The notes under the pieces were generated by a model that saw only the letters and a list, made by a program, of their open reading frames with translations, was not told the DNA's origin and made no database searches. 64,000 bases of DNA. Origin: an uncultured Clostridia bacterium (GTDB lineage: Bacteria > Bacillota > Clostridia > Christensenellales > CAG-917). Below, one piece after another: positions 20,037 to 49,492 of the stretch. The stretch is taken from positions 40,068-104,067 of the forward strand of contig CANQNQ010000003.1 in NCBI GenBank assembly GCA_947625225.1, read 5' to 3'. Both the position numbers and the translations under genes were made by a program. Positions within the stretch are counted from its first letter, which is position 1, and each line of letters begins with the position of its first letter.

Positions 20037-20545
20037 GCAAAAGCGCAATAAAGGTCATACGCTTTTTTGGTCTTATACCGCACACAAAAATCTTAACGGC
20101 TCATGATATCTGTATCCACAGATATAACTCACCTAATTTTTGTGTTAGGTTTGCGCCTGCGGCGCTTATAGGTTGGCACGTCAAGACACGACGTGCTTTT
20201 GTTATCTCAAAAGCACCAAAAGGTCACATGCCTTTTTGATGTTCTACCGCACATAAAAATCTTAACGCTGCGTAGATATGCGCCTCCGCGCATATGACTC
20301 CGCTAATTTTTATGCTTGGTGTTGCGCCTACGGCGCTTATCGTTTGCACATCGACATGATGTGCTTTTGTTATCTCAAAAGCACCAAAAGGTCACATGCC
20401 TTTTTGATGTTCTACCGCGCATAAAAATCTTAACAGCTCATGATATCTGTATCCACAGATATAACTCACCTAATTTTTGTGTTTGGTTTACGCCTGCGAC
20501 ACTTATCGTTTGCACGTCAAGACACGTGCTTTTTGTATGCAAAAA
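20037..20545. repeat. three tandem ~168-bp structured repeat units (period 168-169 bp)
   Basis: The marker TCTTAAC recurs at 20091, 20260 and 20428. Each unit holds a ~64-nt long hairpin, a GCGCC-N3-GGCGC hairpin and a terminator-like hairpin plus T-run (see findings). Confidence 0.85.
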
Positions 20546-22603: not shown

Positions 22604-22788
22604 ATTTCTCAAATATATCCAAATTCGTAGTTTAGATTATAAATTATGTTATGTAAACTTCGGATTTTAATATTTAACGATATTATAAACAACCATATCA
22701 TTCGCAGCAGCACACCGTTGCCGCCTACGAACTTATATATGTTGTATGAGTAAAATAAAAAACAGCCCTGTGAGCTGTTCTTTATTTT

Positions 22789-22864
22789 ACTGTGCGCCAT
22801 CTTTGACATACGCTACCGAAGCGGAAACAGCGTAGGCGGCTCCTTCAAAGTTTCCCCGTGGCAC
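22789..22864 (-). pseudogene. duplicate of the 3'-terminal 76 nt of the SRP RNA (copy A), with its own terminator
   Basis: Identical to 23383..23458. The sequence diverges immediately after CCCCGTGGCAC. Confidence 0.85.
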
Positions 22865-23086
22865 GTGGCAACTTAGTCATAAAAAGCGGTATGCCACAAA
22901 CAAATTTTATACAAAACGTCAATATCCTATCCAATTATCCTCTATTCCGACCGCAAACACCATATCACTTTGTGTTTTATGGCTGTCCGTCAGGCATTCC
23001 GCAGCAGCACTAAGCGTTTGCCGCCTACACATATATAGACATTCAAAAGTAAAAGGAACAGCAGTACTTCGACTGCTGTTCCTTTT

Positions 23087-23162
23087 ACTGTGCGCCATCT
23101 TTGACATACGCTACCGAAGCGGAAACAACGTAGGCGGCTCCTTCAAAGTTTCCCCGTGGCAC
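23087..23162 (-). pseudogene. duplicate of the 3'-terminal 76 nt of the SRP RNA (copy B), with a different terminator
   Basis: One mismatch against 23383..23458. It is followed on the minus strand by an 11-bp-stem hairpin, AGGAACAGCAG/CTGCTGTTCCT. Confidence 0.85.
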
Positions 23163-23345
23163 GTGGCAACTTAGTCATAAAAGCGGTATGCCCAAAACAG
23201 ATTTATGCAAAACGTCAATATCCTTTCCTGCTATCATTTTATTCCAACTAAGAACAACGTCTCACTTTTGGTTTTATGGCTCTCCGTCAGGCATTCCGCA
23301 GCAGCACACCGTTGCCGCCTACGAACTTGTATATGTTGTATGAGT

Positions 23346-23382
23346 AAAATAAAAAACAGCCCTGTGAGCTGTTCTTTATTTT
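23346..23382 (-). terminator. intrinsic terminator of the SRP RNA gene (bidirectional shape)
   Basis: Hairpin AACAGC-N7-GCTGTT flanked by A and T runs. Confidence 0.7.
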
Positions 23383-23647
23383 ACTGTGCGCCATCTTTGA
23401 CATACGCTACCGAAGCGGAAACAGCGTAGGCGGCTCCTTCAAAGTTTCCCCGTGGCACACGCCGGTTCTGCTTAGTGCTGCTGCGGTCAAGCTCTGACAC
23501 GGTTCACAGTAAGACATTGCACGGGACCTTGCTATCAACGCTCCTTGCGCTGTGCGGCCAACCATAACATAAGCCTGGGATGGTGTTCGGCACTGCTATT
23601 GCGGATTGCAGTTTACAGGGCACCGCAAGCTCCCCGTCTAGCACAGT
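23383..23647 (-). ncRNA. ffs: signal recognition particle RNA, long (Alu-domain-containing, Bacillus scRNA-like) form, ~265 nt
   Basis: The minus strand reads GCGGUGCCCUGUAAACUGCAAUCCGCAAUAGCAG, matching from memory the Alu-domain motifs of B. subtilis scRNA. The domain IV strands are GAACCGUGUCAG...GCAGCAGCACUAAG...GUGUGCC. The 5' ACUGUGC pairs with the 3' GCACAGU. Confidence 0.8.
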
Positions 23648-44437: not shown

Positions 44438-45442
44438 ATGAGCGTAACATTTGAAGGCTATGAAAGACGTATAGACAAGATCAACGCCACGCTTAAAAAC
44501 TACGGCATAAAGGATCTTGAGCAAGCAAGGCAGATCTGCCTCGACCACGGCGTAGATTGCGAAGCCATCGTAAAGGGCGTGCAACCCATCGCGTTTGAAA
44601 ATGCGGTGTGGGCATACACGGTGGGCTGTGCCATCGCCATCAAGAAAAACTGCAAGGAGGCCGCCGACGCCGCAGAAGCCATAGGCGAAGGTCTGCAATC
44701 CTTCTGCATCCCGGGCTCCGTTGCCGAACAGCGCAAAGTGGGTCTGGGTCACGGCAACCTTGCCGCAATGCTGCTTAGGGAAAGCACGAAGTGCTTTGCA
44801 TTCCTTGCCGGTCACGAATCGTTCGCGGCGGCTGAGGGCGCAATAGGCATCGCAAAAACCGCAAACAAAGTGAGAAAGACTCCCCTCAAGGTCATCCTCA
44901 ACGGCCTTGGCAAGGACGCGGCGTTCATCATATCGCGCATAAACGGTTTCACCTATGTGCAGACCAAGATGGACTACTTCACCGGCGAAGTCAAAGTGAT
45001 CAAAGAGACCGCCTACAGCAACGGCGAACGCGCGGCTGTCAGAGTGTACGGCGCCGACGACGTCACCGAGGGCGTCGCTATAATGCGCCTCGAGGACGTG
45101 GACGTGTCCATCACGGGCAACTCCACCAACCCCACACGCTTCCAGCATCCCGTCGCGGGCACCTACAAAAAATGGTGCTGGGACAACGGCAAAAAGTACT
45201 TCTCCGTCGCGTCCGGCGGTGGCACGGGCAGAACGCTGCATCCCGACAATATGGCTGCAGGTCCCGCAAGCTACGGCATGACGGATACGATGGGCAGGAT
45301 GCACTCCGACGCGCAATTTGCGGGCAGCAGCTCCGTCCCCGCCCATGTTGAGATGATGGGCCTCATCGGCATGGGCAACAACCCGATGGTTGGTGCATCA
45401 GTCGCTTGCGCGGTCGCCGTGCAGGAAGCACTGGCGAAGTAA
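44438..45442 (+). CDS. GGGtGRT family protein (function unknown)
   Basis: Contains the eponymous motif SGGGTGRTLHPD. 334 aa. Confidence 0.85.
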   Translation: MSVTFEGYERRIDKINATLKNYGIKDLEQARQICLDHGVDCEAIVKGVQPIAFENAVWAYTVGCAIAIKKNCKEAADAAEAIGEGLQSFCIPGSVAEQRKVGLGHGNLAAMLLRESTKCFAFLAGHESFAAAEGAIGIAKTANKVRKTPLKVILNGLGKDAAFIISRINGFTYVQTKMDYFTGEVKVIKETAYSNGERAAVRVYGADDVTEGVAIMRLEDVDVSITGNSTNPTRFQHPVAGTYKKWCWDNGKKYFSVASGGGTGRTLHPDNMAAGPASYGMTDTMGRMHSDAQFAGSSSVPAHVEMMGLIGMGNNPMVGASVACAVAVQEALAK

Positions 45443-45631
45443 AAAAACCTACTGTTTAGTAGCGCTATAGCAATATTGGAACAGCTCCCGATTTTTGGGG
45501 GCTGTTTACTTGTTAACCAAAAATGTATAGAAAATGTATAAATTGTTTACCGTTTGTTTACCAAAATTATAGACGTTACAACCCGATGAGTGTCATCATC
45601 TATTTTTTATTCCGATGACTGTCATCGGCAT
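45369..45631 (+). repeat. direct repeat, left copy (attL-like): last 74 nt of the GGGtGRT gene plus 189 nt downstream
   Basis: Aligns with 48438..48699. The coding part has 7 mismatches and the non-coding part is nearly identical. Confidence 0.9.
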
Positions 45632-45743
45632 GATGGTATAATTATGCAAAATAGATGCAAACAAAAAAAATTCAAGAAACACGATTTTTTGATTCTTTAC
45701 AACAAATAGTGAGTATGCTAAAATGTTTTTCGGAGGGCAACTT

Positions 45744-46439
45744 ATGGCAACGCTTACACACGAACAAATGAACAAGATAAGAAACTTTTTGTTTGCTGAC
45801 CCGATTTCTATAGAAGCATTCAAGAGGCTATATTATTTTCTGAACAAATCCGTCGATGGCGTCAGGCTCGACTATCGCACGAACAAAAACGATATGATTT
45901 TGGGCGTAAAACGAGATGGCGAGCGCTTAAGATTTTATCTTATCAGACAATATAATGACAGAATAATTTCAATAAGATTTGTCGACCCCGAAATATCCCC
46001 CGAAGTTTTCAATCCTCTTAAGTTGGACGAATATAAAGCCAATCTTATCTCAATTTCTGACAAAATTAAAGCTGGCACATTGGACTTGAAAATCAAAACG
46101 TCACACGCGCACGGCGGCAAATATGAAACGCCAAAATCCGATGAAAGCAAGGCGCTTGCGCAAAAGAGCACGTCTACTCCGCACGTCAAATACAACTTAA
46201 GACCGAGGAGTAAAACCATCAGTGGACACTATCATCCAGACAAAGAAAACGTACCAAAAAACTTTGAGTTTATCAAAAAAGAGGTAGGCACTCTATCCGA
46301 CAATGCAAACGATGTGCAAGTTACAATAAAAATCAAAATCAGCGATATAGAGCAACTCAATACAGACGCGATAAGCAAACTATTGATAAAAGGTGCTGAA
46401 CTTAACAGCATAGACTTCTGTCAAAAGAAAAAGAATTGA
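45744..46439 (+). CDS. hypothetical protein (231 aa, no recognisable domain)
   Basis: ATG preceded by GGAGGG, with its own promoter-like TTTACA, 17-nt spacer, TAAAAT, and a terminator at about 46463..46490. AT-rich codon usage unlike the core genes. Confidence 0.65.
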   Translation: MATLTHEQMNKIRNFLFADPISIEAFKRLYYFLNKSVDGVRLDYRTNKNDMILGVKRDGERLRFYLIRQYNDRIISIRFVDPEISPEVFNPLKLDEYKANLISISDKIKAGTLDLKIKTSHAHGGKYETPKSDESKALAQKSTSTPHVKYNLRPRSKTISGHYHPDKENVPKNFEFIKKEVGTLSDNANDVQVTIKIKISDIEQLNTDAISKLLIKGAELNSIDFCQKKKN

Positions 46440-46716
46440 ATTGTTTATTCCGATCGCACAAAGTAAAAGCGCCCTAGTGGGCGCTTTTGAATACGTTCAA
46501 CTGCCAAGCGTAAAAACATTATAGACAATAAAAAGTATGAGGCCGGACTACATCTGTCCGGCCATTCAACAAATTACACAACACCACTTTAGTGCAATCT
46601 ACTCAAAAATTTTCACCAAAGAGACAGCGAGCCCAGGCTGCAATATCAACAAAGGCCGCGCTTTAGGCCCTTTGTCAACAAATTTGTGTCAAACCAAGCG
46701 GTATACACTACCCATT

Positions 46717-47112
46717 TCAAACGATTTCACTGCTTATGCCCCAGTTTTTGAGGTCATAAATCGTGGACTCGATCATGTCCCCAATCCACGCCTCAATATC
46801 CCCGAAACTGTTGGCTATGTAATCCTTAGTATCCTGGGACAGCTGAGATAATGCCATCTCCTTTGCTTGAGATAAGGCCTGCATCTGCGCATCCTTGTCA
46901 AACAGGTTTTGGTCCTTTAAGCTTTGAACATAGGTCTGATATGTCACCTTGACCGCCCGGCTGATAATCTCAACGGCGTCCGTCAGGTACTTCGCATTCT
47001 TTGTGTTGGATATCTTGCTGTTGATCCAGACCACAAGTCTTTGGGTAAGCCAAGACACAAGCGCCGTCAGAACAACGCTAACAACCGACAATATAATTTC
47101 CTGCCAATCCAT
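46717..47112 (-). CDS. phage holin, LL-H family
   Basis: 131 aa. An N-terminal TM segment (IILSVVSVVLTALVSWL) is followed by a long amphipathic helical region with the ...AKYLTDAVEIISRAVKVTYQTYVQSLK... pattern typical of this family. No endolysin gene follows. Confidence 0.75.
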   Translation of the reverse strand: MDWQEIILSVVSVVLTALVSWLTQRLVVWINSKISNTKNAKYLTDAVEIISRAVKVTYQTYVQSLKDQNLFDKDAQMQALSQAKEMALSQLSQDTKDYIANSFGDIEAWIGDMIESTIYDLKNWGISSEIV

Positions 47113-47288
47113 AAAATTCTCCTTTTACAAAGCGAGCGCCATAATAGACGCTCGCTGTTCCTTTATATTCCTTAAATAAACACAGCAAATTATTTTTCAA
47201 TAAAATACACATTTGATGGAACCAAAAAAATAAGGCGACCACGGAACTTAATCCATTGGTCGCCTAATTTTTATTATCATCTTACCAT

Positions 47289-47810
47289 CTATATCTCCCA
47301 TCCGCGCTCGCTGCAATAAAAACGCAAATTTTGCTCATCAAGAGTAAAATTGCAGCACCGCGCAATAAGTTGAGGGTATCCTCTTCCCGTCGTAATTCTA
47401 GTATAAAGTTTCTGTGCCTTATCCAGAATTTCCGTTCGATGAGCATTGCACCATGTCAACTGATTGGCAAGCAGGGCTTTGTACGCTACATCCGCTGCAC
47501 TGTCGCCGGACTGGACAACGGGGTTAACGGCTGTAATGGAGTTCTTATGTACTGGTATCATGTTGTTCAGGTTGATGACCCCATAATTCCCATTGTCGAT
47601 CTTGATGAAGTCAACTTGGTTCTTCATAGATTGATGCTTGGGCTTCGGAGAACTTAACGGCGCATAATACTCCGCTCCATTGACTTCAAGCAAAATCCCG
47701 ACAAACGGGCGGTTCGCCTTCTTGTCCATGTTATACGGAACACACGGATCCCACTTGCGCAAAAAATCACAGTAGGCGGTATCAATTACATAAAACGAAA
47801 GCCTTGCCAT
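47289..47810 (-). CDS. toxN: type III toxin-antitoxin system toxin, ToxN/AbiQ family endoribonuclease
   Basis: 173 aa. Motifs FYVIDTAYCDFLRKWDPCVP, RPFVGILLEVNGAEYYAPLSSPKPKH, INLNNMIPV and CNFTLDE align by eye with ToxN and AbiQ. Confidence 0.85.
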   Translation of the reverse strand: MARLSFYVIDTAYCDFLRKWDPCVPYNMDKKANRPFVGILLEVNGAEYYAPLSSPKPKHQSMKNQVDFIKIDNGNYGVINLNNMIPVHKNSITAVNPVVQSGDSAADVAYKALLANQLTWCNAHRTEILDKAQKLYTRITTGRGYPQLIARCCNFTLDEQNLRFYCSERGWEI

Positions 47811-47820
47811 ATTCTACCCC

Positions 47821-47860
47821 AAAAAAGGTGAGGTCGAGTTGCCCCGACCTCACCTTTTTT
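47821..47860 (-). terminator. intrinsic terminator between the antitoxin repeats and toxN
   Basis: 10-bp stem GGTGAGGTCG/CGACCTCACC flanked by A6 and T6. Confidence 0.8.
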
Positions 47861-47964
47861 CACTCCCACTCATGGTAGGGTACACCGCTTTTTTCATTCC
47901 CACTCTACGGTAGGGTACACCGCTTTTTTCATTCCCACTCTACGGTAGGGTACACCGCTTTTTT
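47861..47964 (-). ncRNA. toxI: ToxI/antiQ-like antitoxin RNA: three tandem 35-nt repeats
   Basis: 47930..47964 and 47895..47929 are identical 35-mers. 47861..47894 is a 34-nt variant. Position and architecture match type III TA loci. Confidence 0.8.
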
Positions 47965-47973
47965 GACGCTTAT

Positions 47974-48002
47974 ATTATAACACGGGTTCTATCCGCTGGC
48001 AA
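47974..48002 (-). promoter_or_regulatory. sigma-70-type promoter of the type III TA locus
   Basis: The minus strand reads TTGCCA, 17-nt spacer, TATAAT, about 9 nt upstream of the first repeat. Confidence 0.6.
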
Positions 48003-48437
48003 GTGGTTTGTGCCAACTTTTTTCGAAATATAAGCGTCACTATATAATATGCCGATTTTTCTTGGAAATTATAATGCCCCGCTCACACGAGGGCACCATC
48101 TTCGTTCAAGATTTATTTGGCGAGGATAGCCCCCGCCGCGGTGGGCCTTGGGAATTTCAACCCAGCCCAAATCTATTTAAAAGGCAAAAATGCCTGGATT
48201 TTTATGCATTATCTCCTAAAATTGGAAAAATGCATAATTGCATAAAACTCAATATAATTTTGACAATTTGTTTACCGTTTGTTTACCACCTGAGAAAATG
48301 ATACCAAATGAAACCAAATGAGAGGTAGTGAAACGTAGGTTATGACATACCTCAAAAAAGTCCAAAATTGTCACTAAATACTAATGAAACGTAGTGACAC
48401 TAAGTGATAATAAATGAGAGCTAAAAACCCGTACCAA

Positions 48438-48511
48438 GCATGGGCAACAACCCAATGGTTGGTGCATCAGTCGCTTGCGCGGTGGCAGTGCAAGAAGCTC
48501 TCGCCAAGTAA
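48438..48511 (+). pseudogene. orphan duplicate of the last 23 codons plus stop of the GGGtGRT gene
   Basis: Encodes the same peptide tail (...MGNNPMVGASVACAVAVQEALAK) as 45369..45442, using 7 different synonymous codons. There is no upstream reading frame. Confidence 0.85.
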
Positions 48512-48699
48512 AAAAACCTACTGTTTAGTAGCGCTATAGCAATATTGGAACAGCTCCCGATTTTGGGGACTGTTTACTTGTTAACCAAAAATGTATAGAA
48601 AATGTATAAATTGTTTACCGTTTGTTTACCAAAATTATAGACGTTACAACCCGATGAGTGTCATCATCTATTTTTTATTCCGATGACTGTCATCGGCAT
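48438..48699 (+). repeat. direct repeat, right copy (attR-like)
   Basis: See 45369..45631. Confidence 0.9.
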
Positions 48700-48934: not shown

Positions 48935-49492
48935 TTATCTTATACCGGCGAAGGAGGAGGTGTACTGCCCTATATACTTTTCAAGCACGGCGATGGCTTC
49001 CTGCGCGTTGGCGACGCCGAAAATTCTGTCCTCGGGGATTTCCTCATAGCGAACGCGACCGTCAAGACGAGTATCCGCCACTTTGCTGCTCCAGCCCGCT
49101 CCTCTGTCGTACGCCAATATAAGCCTCTTAAGCGTCCAGGCGGAGGAGATCTCCGCAAGCGTGCCCGATCCACCGCCCACTGCGACCACCGCGTCGGAAT
49201 TGGCGACGATCACATTGCGATATATATCCAGCCCCGTTGCGATGGTTATGTCCGCAAACTTGTTGCCGGCCTTGCGGTCGAACATGGGAAGTATAGCGAT
49301 GGTGTCGCCCTCTGTATAGCATTCGGACGCCTTTGCGCCCTCAAAAGCAGCCTGCATAACGCCGCCCATGCCGCCGGACACCACTCTGTAGCCGTTGTCC
49401 ACAAGCGCTTTGCCCAGTTCGTAGGCAAACGTCAATCTGCTGTCGCCCTCGGGGACGGAGCTGTCGCCTATAATGGAAACCATCTTCTTCAT
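48935..49492 (-). CDS. TIGR00725-type LOG/lysine-decarboxylase-like Rossmann protein
   Basis: Motifs VVSGGMGGVMQAAFEGA and AVGGGSGTLAEIS. Confidence 0.75.
   Translation of the reverse strand: MKKMVSIIGDSSVPEGDSRLTFAYELGKALVDNGYRVVSGGMGGVMQAAFEGAKASECYTEGDTIAILPMFDRKAGNKFADITIATGLDIYRNVIVANSDAVVAVGGGSGTLAEISSAWTLKRLILAYDRGAGWSSKVADTRLDGRVRYEEIPEDRIFGVANAQEAIAVLEKYIGQYTSSFAGIR

Follow-up and report, generated by a model that had tools for sequence, protein, structure and literature searches.

Does a locus in the chromosome of an uncultured gut Clostridia bacterium encode a toxin together with an antitoxin that is an RNA rather than a protein? The locus, here called toxIN, is a cassette of ~0.84 kb on the minus strand of a 64,000-nt stretch of contig CANQNQ010000003.1 (the window), in which a promoter, three repeat units, a hairpin and a 173-aa open reading frame (ORF) follow one another. 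An earlier note, made from the letters alone, had read it as a complete type III toxin-antitoxin (TA) operon, and every element that it listed was found at the coordinates it gave when the letters were read on the minus strand. The type III reading was supported by a profile hidden Markov model (HMM) match of the toxin, by homology of the repeats to ToxI antitoxin RNAs, by covariation in a predicted pseudoknot, and by the three structural criteria for type III loci set by Blower et al. 2012 (PMC3401426), all three of which the locus displays. We consider it highly probable that this is an intact ToxIN-family operon that works as described for the family.

Toxin gene and operon layout

The 173-aa ORF carries the ToxN/AbiQ motifs quoted in the earlier note, which had named the lack of an HMM match as grounds for giving up its reading. 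The outcome was decisive in the other direction, a full-length match to the Pfam family ToxN_toxin (PF13958; E = 1.4e-47, 162 bits against a cut-off of 25, profile positions 1–157 of 159). The PADLOC AbiQ model matched the ORF at 2.3e-34, and relatives are named 'type III toxin-antitoxin system ToxN/AbiQ family toxin' in RefSeq. Sequence matches in the Protein Data Bank (PDB) were ToxN_Bt (4ATO, 7e-22), ToxN_Pa (2XD0, 4e-16), ToxN_Ec (7D8O, 7.5e-16) and AbiQ (4GLK, 4e-5). An AlphaFold model of the protein, based on 32 relatives (pLDDT 91.8, pTM 0.87), superimposed on the same four structures with Foldseek TM scores of 0.74–0.79 (probability 1.00), on CptN (4RMO) with 0.54 and on MazF with ~0.3. 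The protein is thus predicted to adopt the ToxN fold, a β core with helices around it.

In E. coli ToxN, Lys33, Thr52, Ser53 and Lys55 form the catalytic site, and Trp57, Phe88, Tyr110 and Gln117 keep the RNA in place (PMC8860590). Residues S53, S54, P55 and K56 of the window toxin align with T52, S53, P54 and K55 of ToxN_Pa and ToxN_Ec, and Y110 and Q117 align with the residues of the same number. Five of these (S54, P55, K56, Y110 and Q117) are invariant in the 32 relatives, while position 53 is Ser in 23 and Thr in nine. AbiQ has an essential Ser51 at the position equivalent to S53, where substitution by Thr is tolerated (PMC5086642). The active-site residues are conserved, and by analogy with the family we infer that the protein would be toxic, would be neutralized by the repeat RNA and would process it.

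The promoter proposed in the earlier note, TTGCCA and TATAAT separated by 17 nt, is correctly placed and agrees with the consensus at 11 of 12 positions. It has an extended −10 element (TG at 47982–47981), was the top promoter-like site in the 3.5 kb scanned and ends ~10 nt upstream of the repeat array, with a predicted transcription start at ~47968–47966. Relatives have TTGACA-17-TATAAT in the matching position, so that the position of the promoter is conserved. The 10-bp GC-rich hairpin flanked by A6 and T6, at 47860..47821, was also confirmed. Its 16-nt arms, A6 plus stem and stem plus T6, are perfectly complementary, and it folds with −30.5 kcal/mol (z = −7.2), none of 200 shuffles being equally stable. 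The A6 of this terminator is the fourth A-tract of the locus, which closes unit 3 and doubles as the 5′ arm of the hairpin. A simple terminator scan did not list the hairpin, apparently since the stem takes in the A6/T6 pairs and no T-tail is left. The terminator ends 10 nt before the ATG of toxN, and the read-through that the earlier note called leaky would be expected by analogy with the family. The ORF list of the window contains no candidate protein antitoxin adjoining toxN.

We then compared the locus with its relatives. The database holds 771 toxN homologues at E ≤ 1e-5; PF13958 was found in all 120 homologues listed, and the closest protein outside the own lineage was 80% identical among the matches listed. 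Loci were gathered from four genomes (rabbit-gut Clostridia metagenome-assembled genomes, MAGs), 80 metagenome contigs and 12 IMG/VR viral contigs, which together with the window gave 97 regions. The order of promoter, array, hairpin and ORF was found again in 86 of the 97, which makes the layout more than a chance arrangement. In these 86, a tandem array of 34–40 nt in two to five copies ends 34–116 nt before the toxin start; the array-less exceptions are mostly contigs ending short upstream, and most of the viral contigs have arrays. Of 54 distinct segments between array and ATG, 48 contain a hairpin with a T-run behind it, and in the remaining six there is a GC-rich hairpin all the same. 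The array most often has three copies (37 of 54 distinct loci). The closest relative, L001, is a rabbit-gut Clostridia MAG in which the cassette is 91% identical and the surrounding DNA unrelated. Apart from an EamA transporter, the neighbouring ORFs in L001 gave no Pfam matches, and its context is uninformative.

Table 1 Features of the toxIN cassette and of the islet that contains it, in window coordinates.
Feature	Position	Strand	Remarks
Whole toxIN cassette	47224..48058	minus	unit common to other genomes; 837-nt stretch 91% identical to L001
Inverted repeat, upstream arm	48027..48039	minus	TGACGCTTATATT; 13-bp perfect, partner 47964..47976
Promoter, sigma-70 type	47974..48002	minus	TTGCCA 48002..47997, 17-nt spacer, TATAAT 47979..47974
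Inverted repeat, downstream arm	47964..47976	minus	AATATAAGCGTCA; overlaps −10 hexamer, predicted start and first A of the array
ToxI-like unit 1	47930..47964	minus	35 nt, AAAAAAGCGGTGTACCCTACCGTAGAGTGGGAATG; Rfam ToxI 20.3 bits over entire model
ToxI-like unit 2	47895..47929	minus	35 nt, same sequence as unit 1; Rfam ToxI 20.3 bits
ToxI-like unit 3	47861..47894	minus	34-nt variant, AAAAAAGCGGTGTACCCTACCATGAGTGGGAGTG; Rfam ToxI 16.2 bits
Terminator between antitoxin and toxin	47821..47860	minus	A6, 10-bp GC-rich stem, 8-nt loop, T6
Putative Shine-Dalgarno region	47811..47820	minus	GGGG here, GAGG in relatives; directly 3′ of terminator U-tract
toxN, ToxN/AbiQ-family endoribonuclease toxin	47289..47810	minus	173 aa; PF13958, PADLOC AbiQ, PDB and model
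Operon-closing terminator-like hairpin	47226..47272	minus	U-tract; −26.7 kcal/mol, z = −5.7
Holin-like ORF	46717..47112	minus	131 aa; adjoins toxN downstream; PHROG 13712 at 4.8e-25
Islet ORF	45723..46439	plus	238 aa; called as 231-aa gene on contigs L097 and L098
Left direct repeat of islet	45369..45631	plus	GGGtGRT gene 3′ end and intergenic DNA
Right direct repeat of islet	48438..48699	plus	displaced, diverged gene 3′ end and same intergenic DNA

The promoter region has a feature of its own. A 13-bp inverted repeat brackets the −35 element and the spacer, and in L001 both arms are altered together by two paired changes (TGACGCTCACATT / AATGTGAGCGTCA). The repeat is operator-like in appearance, and its covariation hints at an additional layer of transcriptional control. 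It was absent from L002 and the more distant loci compared, and we rejected it as a general feature of toxIN loci since it is present in the window and L001 only. Many distant toxIN loci (L011, L018, L021, L027, L030, L034, L037, L049, L050, L057, L058, L070 and L094) have a small, covarying leader hairpin directly 5′ of the first A-tract (GAGUAgcgAUACUC, GGGUAgcaAUACCC, UCGGAagagaUUCCGA, GAUAGGuuuCCUAUC), which could be an element that protects or processes the 5′ end. The window lacks such a hairpin between the −10 element and the first repeat.

Repeat units and the predicted ToxI pseudoknot

The three head-to-tail repeats of 35, 35 and 34 nt that the earlier note described were recovered both in the letters and by Tandem Repeats Finder (TRF), which reported an array at 47854..47964 with a period of 35, 3.2 copies, 96% matches and a score of 201. 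Three tandem arrays in the window score above 100, and a period of 35 is found in the toxIN array alone. Other large tandem repeats, at 20038–20533 (168 nt × 3.0, 80%) and 22699–23458 (296 nt × 2.6, 82%), are unrelated to toxIN. Unit 3 differs from units 1 and 2 by G22A, a loop shorter by 1 nt and another 3′ tail. Four A6 tracts (47964–59, 47929–24, 47894–89 and 47860–55) delimit exactly three units, and the operon contains just one other A-run of at least five, at 47272..47268 within the 3′ terminator. The confinement of A-runs of this length to the unit boundaries and the 3′ terminator fits the A/AAAA specificity of ToxN_Bt. The lack of A5 runs within the toxN coding sequence was considered as self-avoidance and dropped, as a rough estimate gives about one such run by chance.

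This lineage has units of two types side by side, one of 35 nt (...ACCGUAGAGUGGGAAU.) and one of 34 nt (...ACCAUGAGUGGGAG.G), the latter being that of unit 3 and found in L001 too. They are ordered 35-35-34 in the window (47964–47861) and 34-35-34 in L001 (4849–4957), which implies shuffling of units or gene conversion within arrays.

Each unit aligns end to end and in register with the 34-nt Rfam ToxI model (RF02519), the consensus AAAUUGGUGUAgCCUUACCGUAG..UAGGcACuAAA matching up with the window unit AAAGCGGUGUA-CCCUACCGUAGagUGGGAAUGAAA. When aligned, the window unit agrees with the ToxI units of Bacillus thuringiensis plasmid pAW63 at 25–26 of 36 positions, with a ToxI from a Fusobacterium plasmid at 29 of 37 and with one from a P. 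atrosepticum plasmid at 24 of 37. The core that it has in common with these reference RNAs consists of an A-tract followed by GGUG, CUACC and AGUG. Across loci L003–L084, whose toxins are 50–61% identical to that of the window, a core GCGGUGUACCCUACC...AGUGGGA is almost invariant, and variation between units is concentrated in the 1b–2b loop and the last 3–4 nt, the 3′ tail.

According to Blower et al., ToxI is built from two nested stems of 3–4 bp with a short 2a–1b loop and a variable 1b–2b loop (PMC3401426). The earlier note had proposed a pseudoknot prediction for the 35-mer, and the unit fits this published template, with covariation, in a computational prediction that covers stems and loops and leaves the triplexes of the crystal structures beyond its scope. 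Stem 1 would comprise G9–C21, G10–C20, U11–A19 and G12–U18, with C8–G22 and G7–U23 as outer pairs in this genome, and stem 2 would comprise C15–G31, C16–G30 and C17–G29 (CCC/GGG). The loops are then 2, 0 and 7 nt with a four-pair stem 1, or 2, 0 and 5 nt with six pairs, which by sequence places the unit in Group I of Blower et al. (1b–2b loop of 7 nt or fewer). The template fits 42 of 44 distinct consensus units, mostly with the loop pattern of Blower 2012. At least 7 bp were reached by 91% of units and 29% of shuffled units, a contrast that is only indicative since the units are related.

Compensatory changes in both stems are more telling than this contrast. They were compared in 48 distinct units, including the reference loci, with stems extracted by anchoring in Python; a MAFFT alignment of 44 units had put the divergent phage-borne ones out of register by a single column. 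Stem 2 is found as CCC/GGG, CCUC/GAGG, CCUCA/UGAGG, UGCUC/GAGCA, UCCUC/GAGGA, CCCC/GGGG and CCCA/UGGG, and in the reference loci as GCCU/AGGC, ACUC/GAGU, CUC/GAG and UUCGC/GCGGG. Stem 1 occurs as GGUG/UACC, GGCG/UGCC, GGUG/CACC, GGU/GCC and GGU/ACC.

Several observations weigh against the type III reading. The Rfam gathering score of 50 bits was not reached by any of the three units (20.3, 20.3 and 16.2 bits). When folded without pseudoknots, a lone unit is no more stable than its shuffles (z of about −0.7 to −0.8). In the GGAG-type units, seven of the 48 and none of them in the window, the third pair of stem 1 is disrupted. Unit 1 begins no more than a few nt from the predicted start of transcription, and its 5′ A-tract may be incomplete in the transcript. 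On the protein side, NCBIfam gave toxN no match, Lys33 of ToxN_Pa and ToxN_Ec falls in a 2-residue alignment gap beside an invariant R34, presumed to be its equivalent, and Trp57 is replaced by Lys58.

The sub-threshold Rfam scores and the undistinctive stability of a lone unit would fit repeats that are not an antitoxin RNA at all, but for example DNA iterons, operator sites, the leader of a riboswitch-like element or an array of degenerate, CRISPR-like type, the toxin having a protein partner elsewhere. We regard this as extremely improbable. The gathering score is a curated threshold rather than a biological defining feature, and the comparison with pAW63 points to homology; the unit corresponds position by position to the crystallized ToxI_Bt. 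The covariation in two nested stems is explained only by RNA structure, the array always lies between promoter and terminator on the toxin strand, and toxN has no protein antitoxin candidate beside it. ToxI is only partly folded in the absence of ToxN (PMC5772629), and explicit enumeration of pseudoknots was adopted because non-pseudoknot folding of single units was undistinctive. A permissive Rfam search also returned microRNA matches on the terminator hairpin and a PrrB/RsmZ match of 14.7 bits, which we dismissed as generic hairpin or repeat matches.

The deviations at Lys33 and Trp57, together with the variant unit 3 and the small, possibly decaying islet in which the operon lies, raise the question whether the locus is an inactive relic, silent or with a catalytically dead toxin despite its intact look. 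This is very unlikely. R34 and K58 are invariant in all 32 sequences of the clade, and the deviations are features of the whole clade rather than decay. The ORF is full-length, the promoter is close to consensus, and an identical toxN protein is found on four independent metagenome contigs. In L001, where 9% of the cassette DNA is different, every element has been kept, with paired changes in repeats and hairpins, which indicates purifying selection.

In routine annotation the locus would pass for a toxin gene without a partner, as the toxin would be named and the antitoxin missed, the ToxI model giving only 20 bits against a threshold of 50. The 97 loci form a broad comparative set for one ToxI clade, with 44 distinct units, stem covariation and a near-invariant core. 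With this set, the RNA model could be retrained, and one could look for the nucleotides that determine the selectivity between toxin and antitoxin.

The islet and the role of the operon

An insertion of 3,068 bp and low GC content (islet 45632–48437), set between a GGGtGRT-family gene and a gene of the SLOG family (LDcluster4, 48935..49492), contains the cassette. The GC content is 0.35–0.47 within the insertion and 0.53–0.60 in the flanking genes. Direct repeats of 262–263 nt flank the islet. Their non-coding part differs at two positions, and the part that copies the last 74 nt of the GGGtGRT gene has eight differences, which identifies the right copy as a displaced and diverged gene end. 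The islet is also present on contigs L097–L099. Empty sites were found through the LDcluster4 neighbour, the exact GGGtGRT protein being without a database record. L100 lacks the islet and runs directly from the SLOG side into the GGGtGRT gene, and L102, which encodes an identical LDcluster4 protein, lacks it as well. At the same site L102 (1100–1478, reverse complement) carries ~75 nt of inserted DNA that includes a hairpin and, behind it, a second duplicate (45 nt) of the end of the GGGtGRT gene; insertion and duplication thus seem to recur at this position. The direct repeats, the drop in GC and the sites without the insertion bear out the view of the earlier note that the islet was acquired horizontally. 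No integrase or recombinase was found in the islet.

An insertion of this kind, bounded by 262-nt direct repeats, could readily be deleted by homologous recombination, and related strains have sites that lack it. The same ToxIN machinery could then serve mainly for addiction, stabilizing the integrase-less islet of 3 kb or its larger parent element through the death of cells that have lost it. ToxIN loci stabilize plasmids through post-segregational killing (PMC5772629), and 210 plasmid records carry relatives. The characterized ToxIN_Pa and AbiQ, on the other hand, give strong abortive infection, and addiction is compatible with defence, the sequence separating neither from the other. We hold a primarily addictive role to be possible, with clear reservations.

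The ORF downstream of toxN introduces another origin. It matches a phage holin family in PHROGs, is 46% identical to an Anaeroplasmataceae phage holin and gave a match to Pfam Phage_holin_6_1 that was below threshold, which hints that the islet is a prophage remnant. The operon could then be prophage-derived cargo, either for superinfection exclusion by a decayed prophage or as a phage-borne, ToxI-like counter-defence that acts by mimicry. Phage acquisition of ToxI repeats is documented (PMC5086642), relatives are found on the 12 IMG/VR viral contigs and in Clostridium, Clostridioides and Fusobacterium phages, and one homologue of 57% identity is labelled Caudoviricetes. This origin is nevertheless unlikely, as the islet contains no phage genes other than the holin-like ORF and no integrase, and L001, the closest relative, lies in an unrelated and uninformative context. 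Antitoxin mimicry alone is further countered by the full toxin gene with its intact active site. Because the islet carries a phage-type holin gene as well, a prophage remnant or an addiction role is as plausible as the dedicated anti-phage cargo proposed in the earlier note. An anti-phage function of the ToxIN operon would, like cleavage at the A-tracts, follow from what is known of the family.

Two further parts of the islet were inspected. The 238-aa ORF had no match in Pfam, PHROGs, NCBIfam, PADLOC or PDB sequences. Upstream of the cassette, the islet has a non-coding stretch of ~380 nt that is not part of what L001 shares. At 48122–48169 on the minus strand of this stretch, the Rfam DUF3800-XI RNA motif gave a match below its gathering score (25.7 bits against 37.8, E = 0.0086 in a 4.5-kb search).

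These observations bear on what the locus might add to described ToxIN biology. A second, independent small duplication and insertion at the same site in a related strain suggests a cis-mobilizable or recombination-driven element, for which toxIN would be the retention module that allows an integrase-less islet to persist. The near-invariant ToxI core could reflect cross-neutralization among gut Clostridia ToxINs or a shared pressure from phage mimicry; cross-neutralization within the clade would run contrary to the strict cognate selectivity shown between ToxIN_Pa and ToxIN_Bt. Taken jointly, islet retention, the extra promoter control and cross-neutralization or mimicry pressure are doubtful as an extension of known biology. 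The cassette does add a defence or addiction module to the mobile genes that gut Clostridia have in their pool, one that is clearly polymorphic for presence or absence. Our understanding of type III systems is unchanged by the window locus, which adds an ordinary, intact member to a family whose gut Clostridiales loci were already catalogued in 2012.

Proposed mechanism and comparison with known type III systems

In characterized systems, a single promoter drives the operon and the antitoxin RNA is in excess as a terminator precedes the toxin gene. The toxin cuts the repeat precursor into single units, with which it forms a closed 3:3 complex, so that the active sites are blocked, and the antitoxin RNA is short-lived, so that the toxin is freed once transcription stops. 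Cleavage sites are A-rich, being AA/AU for ToxN_Pa, A/AAAA for ToxN_Bt and A/AAA for AbiQ (PMC5086642, PMC5772629, PMC8860590). By analogy, the anatomy of the window locus fits every one of these steps.

We propose that transcription from the one promoter would give an RNA starting with three tandem ToxI-like units of 35, 35 and 34 nt. The majority of transcripts would end at the hairpin and U-tract at 47860..47821, giving an excess of antitoxin RNA. Read-through transcripts would contain the Shine-Dalgarno sequence and toxN directly past the U-tract, an arrangement that would make translation of toxN depend on read-through. ToxN would then cleave its own precursor inside the four A6 tracts by which the units are marked off. 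Each freed unit would form an H-type pseudoknot, with stem 1 at G9–G12/U18–C21, extending outward to G7–U23, and stem 2 at C15–C17/G29–G31. The A-rich, single-stranded tails of the units would fill the active sites of adjacent ToxN monomers to form a closed and inactive ToxN3:ToxI3 assembly. Should transcription stop, because of phage takeover or because the element is lost, the RNA, being short-lived, would decay, and the freed ToxN would cut A-rich sites in cellular and phage RNAs, leading to growth arrest or cell death. This would account for an abortive-infection or an addiction phenotype.

We compared the locus to the other known type III systems. CptIN and TenpIN share the operon logic of repeat RNA, terminator and endoribonuclease, as well as the core fold, but have longer antitoxin units, and the fold match to CptN is the weaker one noted above. 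No CptN or TenpN was found among the Pfam or PDB sequence matches at E ≤ 1, ToxN_toxin alone exceeded the Pfam threshold, and the locus is, judged on these matches, not a member of either family. The gut Clostridiales toxIN loci of Blower et al. 2012 (Roseburia, Ruminococcus torques, Eubacterium rectale, Coprococcus and Lachnospiraceae spp.) agree with the window locus in family, setting and criteria. Unit lengths in the family range from 31 to 46 nt, and the window has 35-nt units on the toxin strand under one promoter.

AbiQ/antiQ from Lactococcus lactis plasmid pSRQ900 (4GLK) is near-equal in unit size and copy number, with 35 nt × 2.8. The figures that the earlier note gave for antiQ and for ToxI (36 nt × 5.5) are correct. 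The equivalent of the essential Ser51 of AbiQ is a Ser in the window toxin and not a Thr, the fold is similar (TM 0.79), and the PADLOC AbiQ model matches the ORF; AbiQ cleaves with A/AAA specificity. By sequence, AbiQ is far more distant than the ToxN proteins (22% identity).

ToxIN_Pa from P. atrosepticum plasmid pECA1039 (2XD0/2XDB/2XDD) and ToxIN_Ec (7D8O) belong to the same Pfam family and fold (TM 0.75 and 0.78) and share with the window toxin the T/S-S-P-K motif, Y110 and Q117. The ToxI core GGUG...CUACC...AAGUG is common to the window and the P. atrosepticum plasmid variant. The arrays differ, with 36 nt × 5.5 in ToxIN_Pa, 37 nt × 13.1 in pPA21A and 35 nt × 3 in the window. The specificity of ToxIN_Pa and ToxIN_Ec is AA/AU or GAAAU, whereas the window unit contains no AAAU site, and Lys33 and Trp57 of these toxins are not conserved in position. 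Two reference plasmids have features of their own. Plasmid pPA21A of P. atrosepticum 21A (L103, 181–656) has 13.1 copies of its ToxI unit against 5.5 in pECA1039. On the Fusobacterium polymorphum plasmid (L104, 692–1564), the ToxN/AbiQ coding sequence (CDS) is 290 aa long and only its first ~160 residues match ToxN, which suggests an extension or fusion at the C-terminus; the gene that follows encodes an HNH endonuclease.

The closest characterized relative by sequence is ToxIN_Bt of B. thuringiensis pAW63, the best match among solved structures (4ATO, TM 0.74). The earlier label of 'ToxIN / AbiQ-antiQ-like' thus holds in its first half, and AbiQ-like is the looser part, with E values of 7e-22 for ToxIN_Bt and 4e-5 for AbiQ. 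The layouts are alike, since in ToxIN_Bt a promoter is followed by a 34-nt unit in 3.1 copies and then by a hairpin terminator and the toxin. Common to the RNA units of both are the A6 tract, GGUGUA, CUACCGUAG and where stem 2 lies, and the published A/AAAA cleavage specificity of ToxIN_Bt fits the A6 junctions of the window array. The proteins differ, with ~29–37% identity over the aligned parts. Stem 2 is CCC/GGG in the window and GCCU/AGGC or ACUC/GAGU in ToxIN_Bt, the 1b–2b loop is 2 nt longer in the window, and the 3′ tail is AAUG rather than CGCU. Finally, ToxIN_Bt resides on a conjugative Bacillus plasmid, whereas the window locus is chromosomal, within an islet of an uncultured gut Clostridia bacterium.

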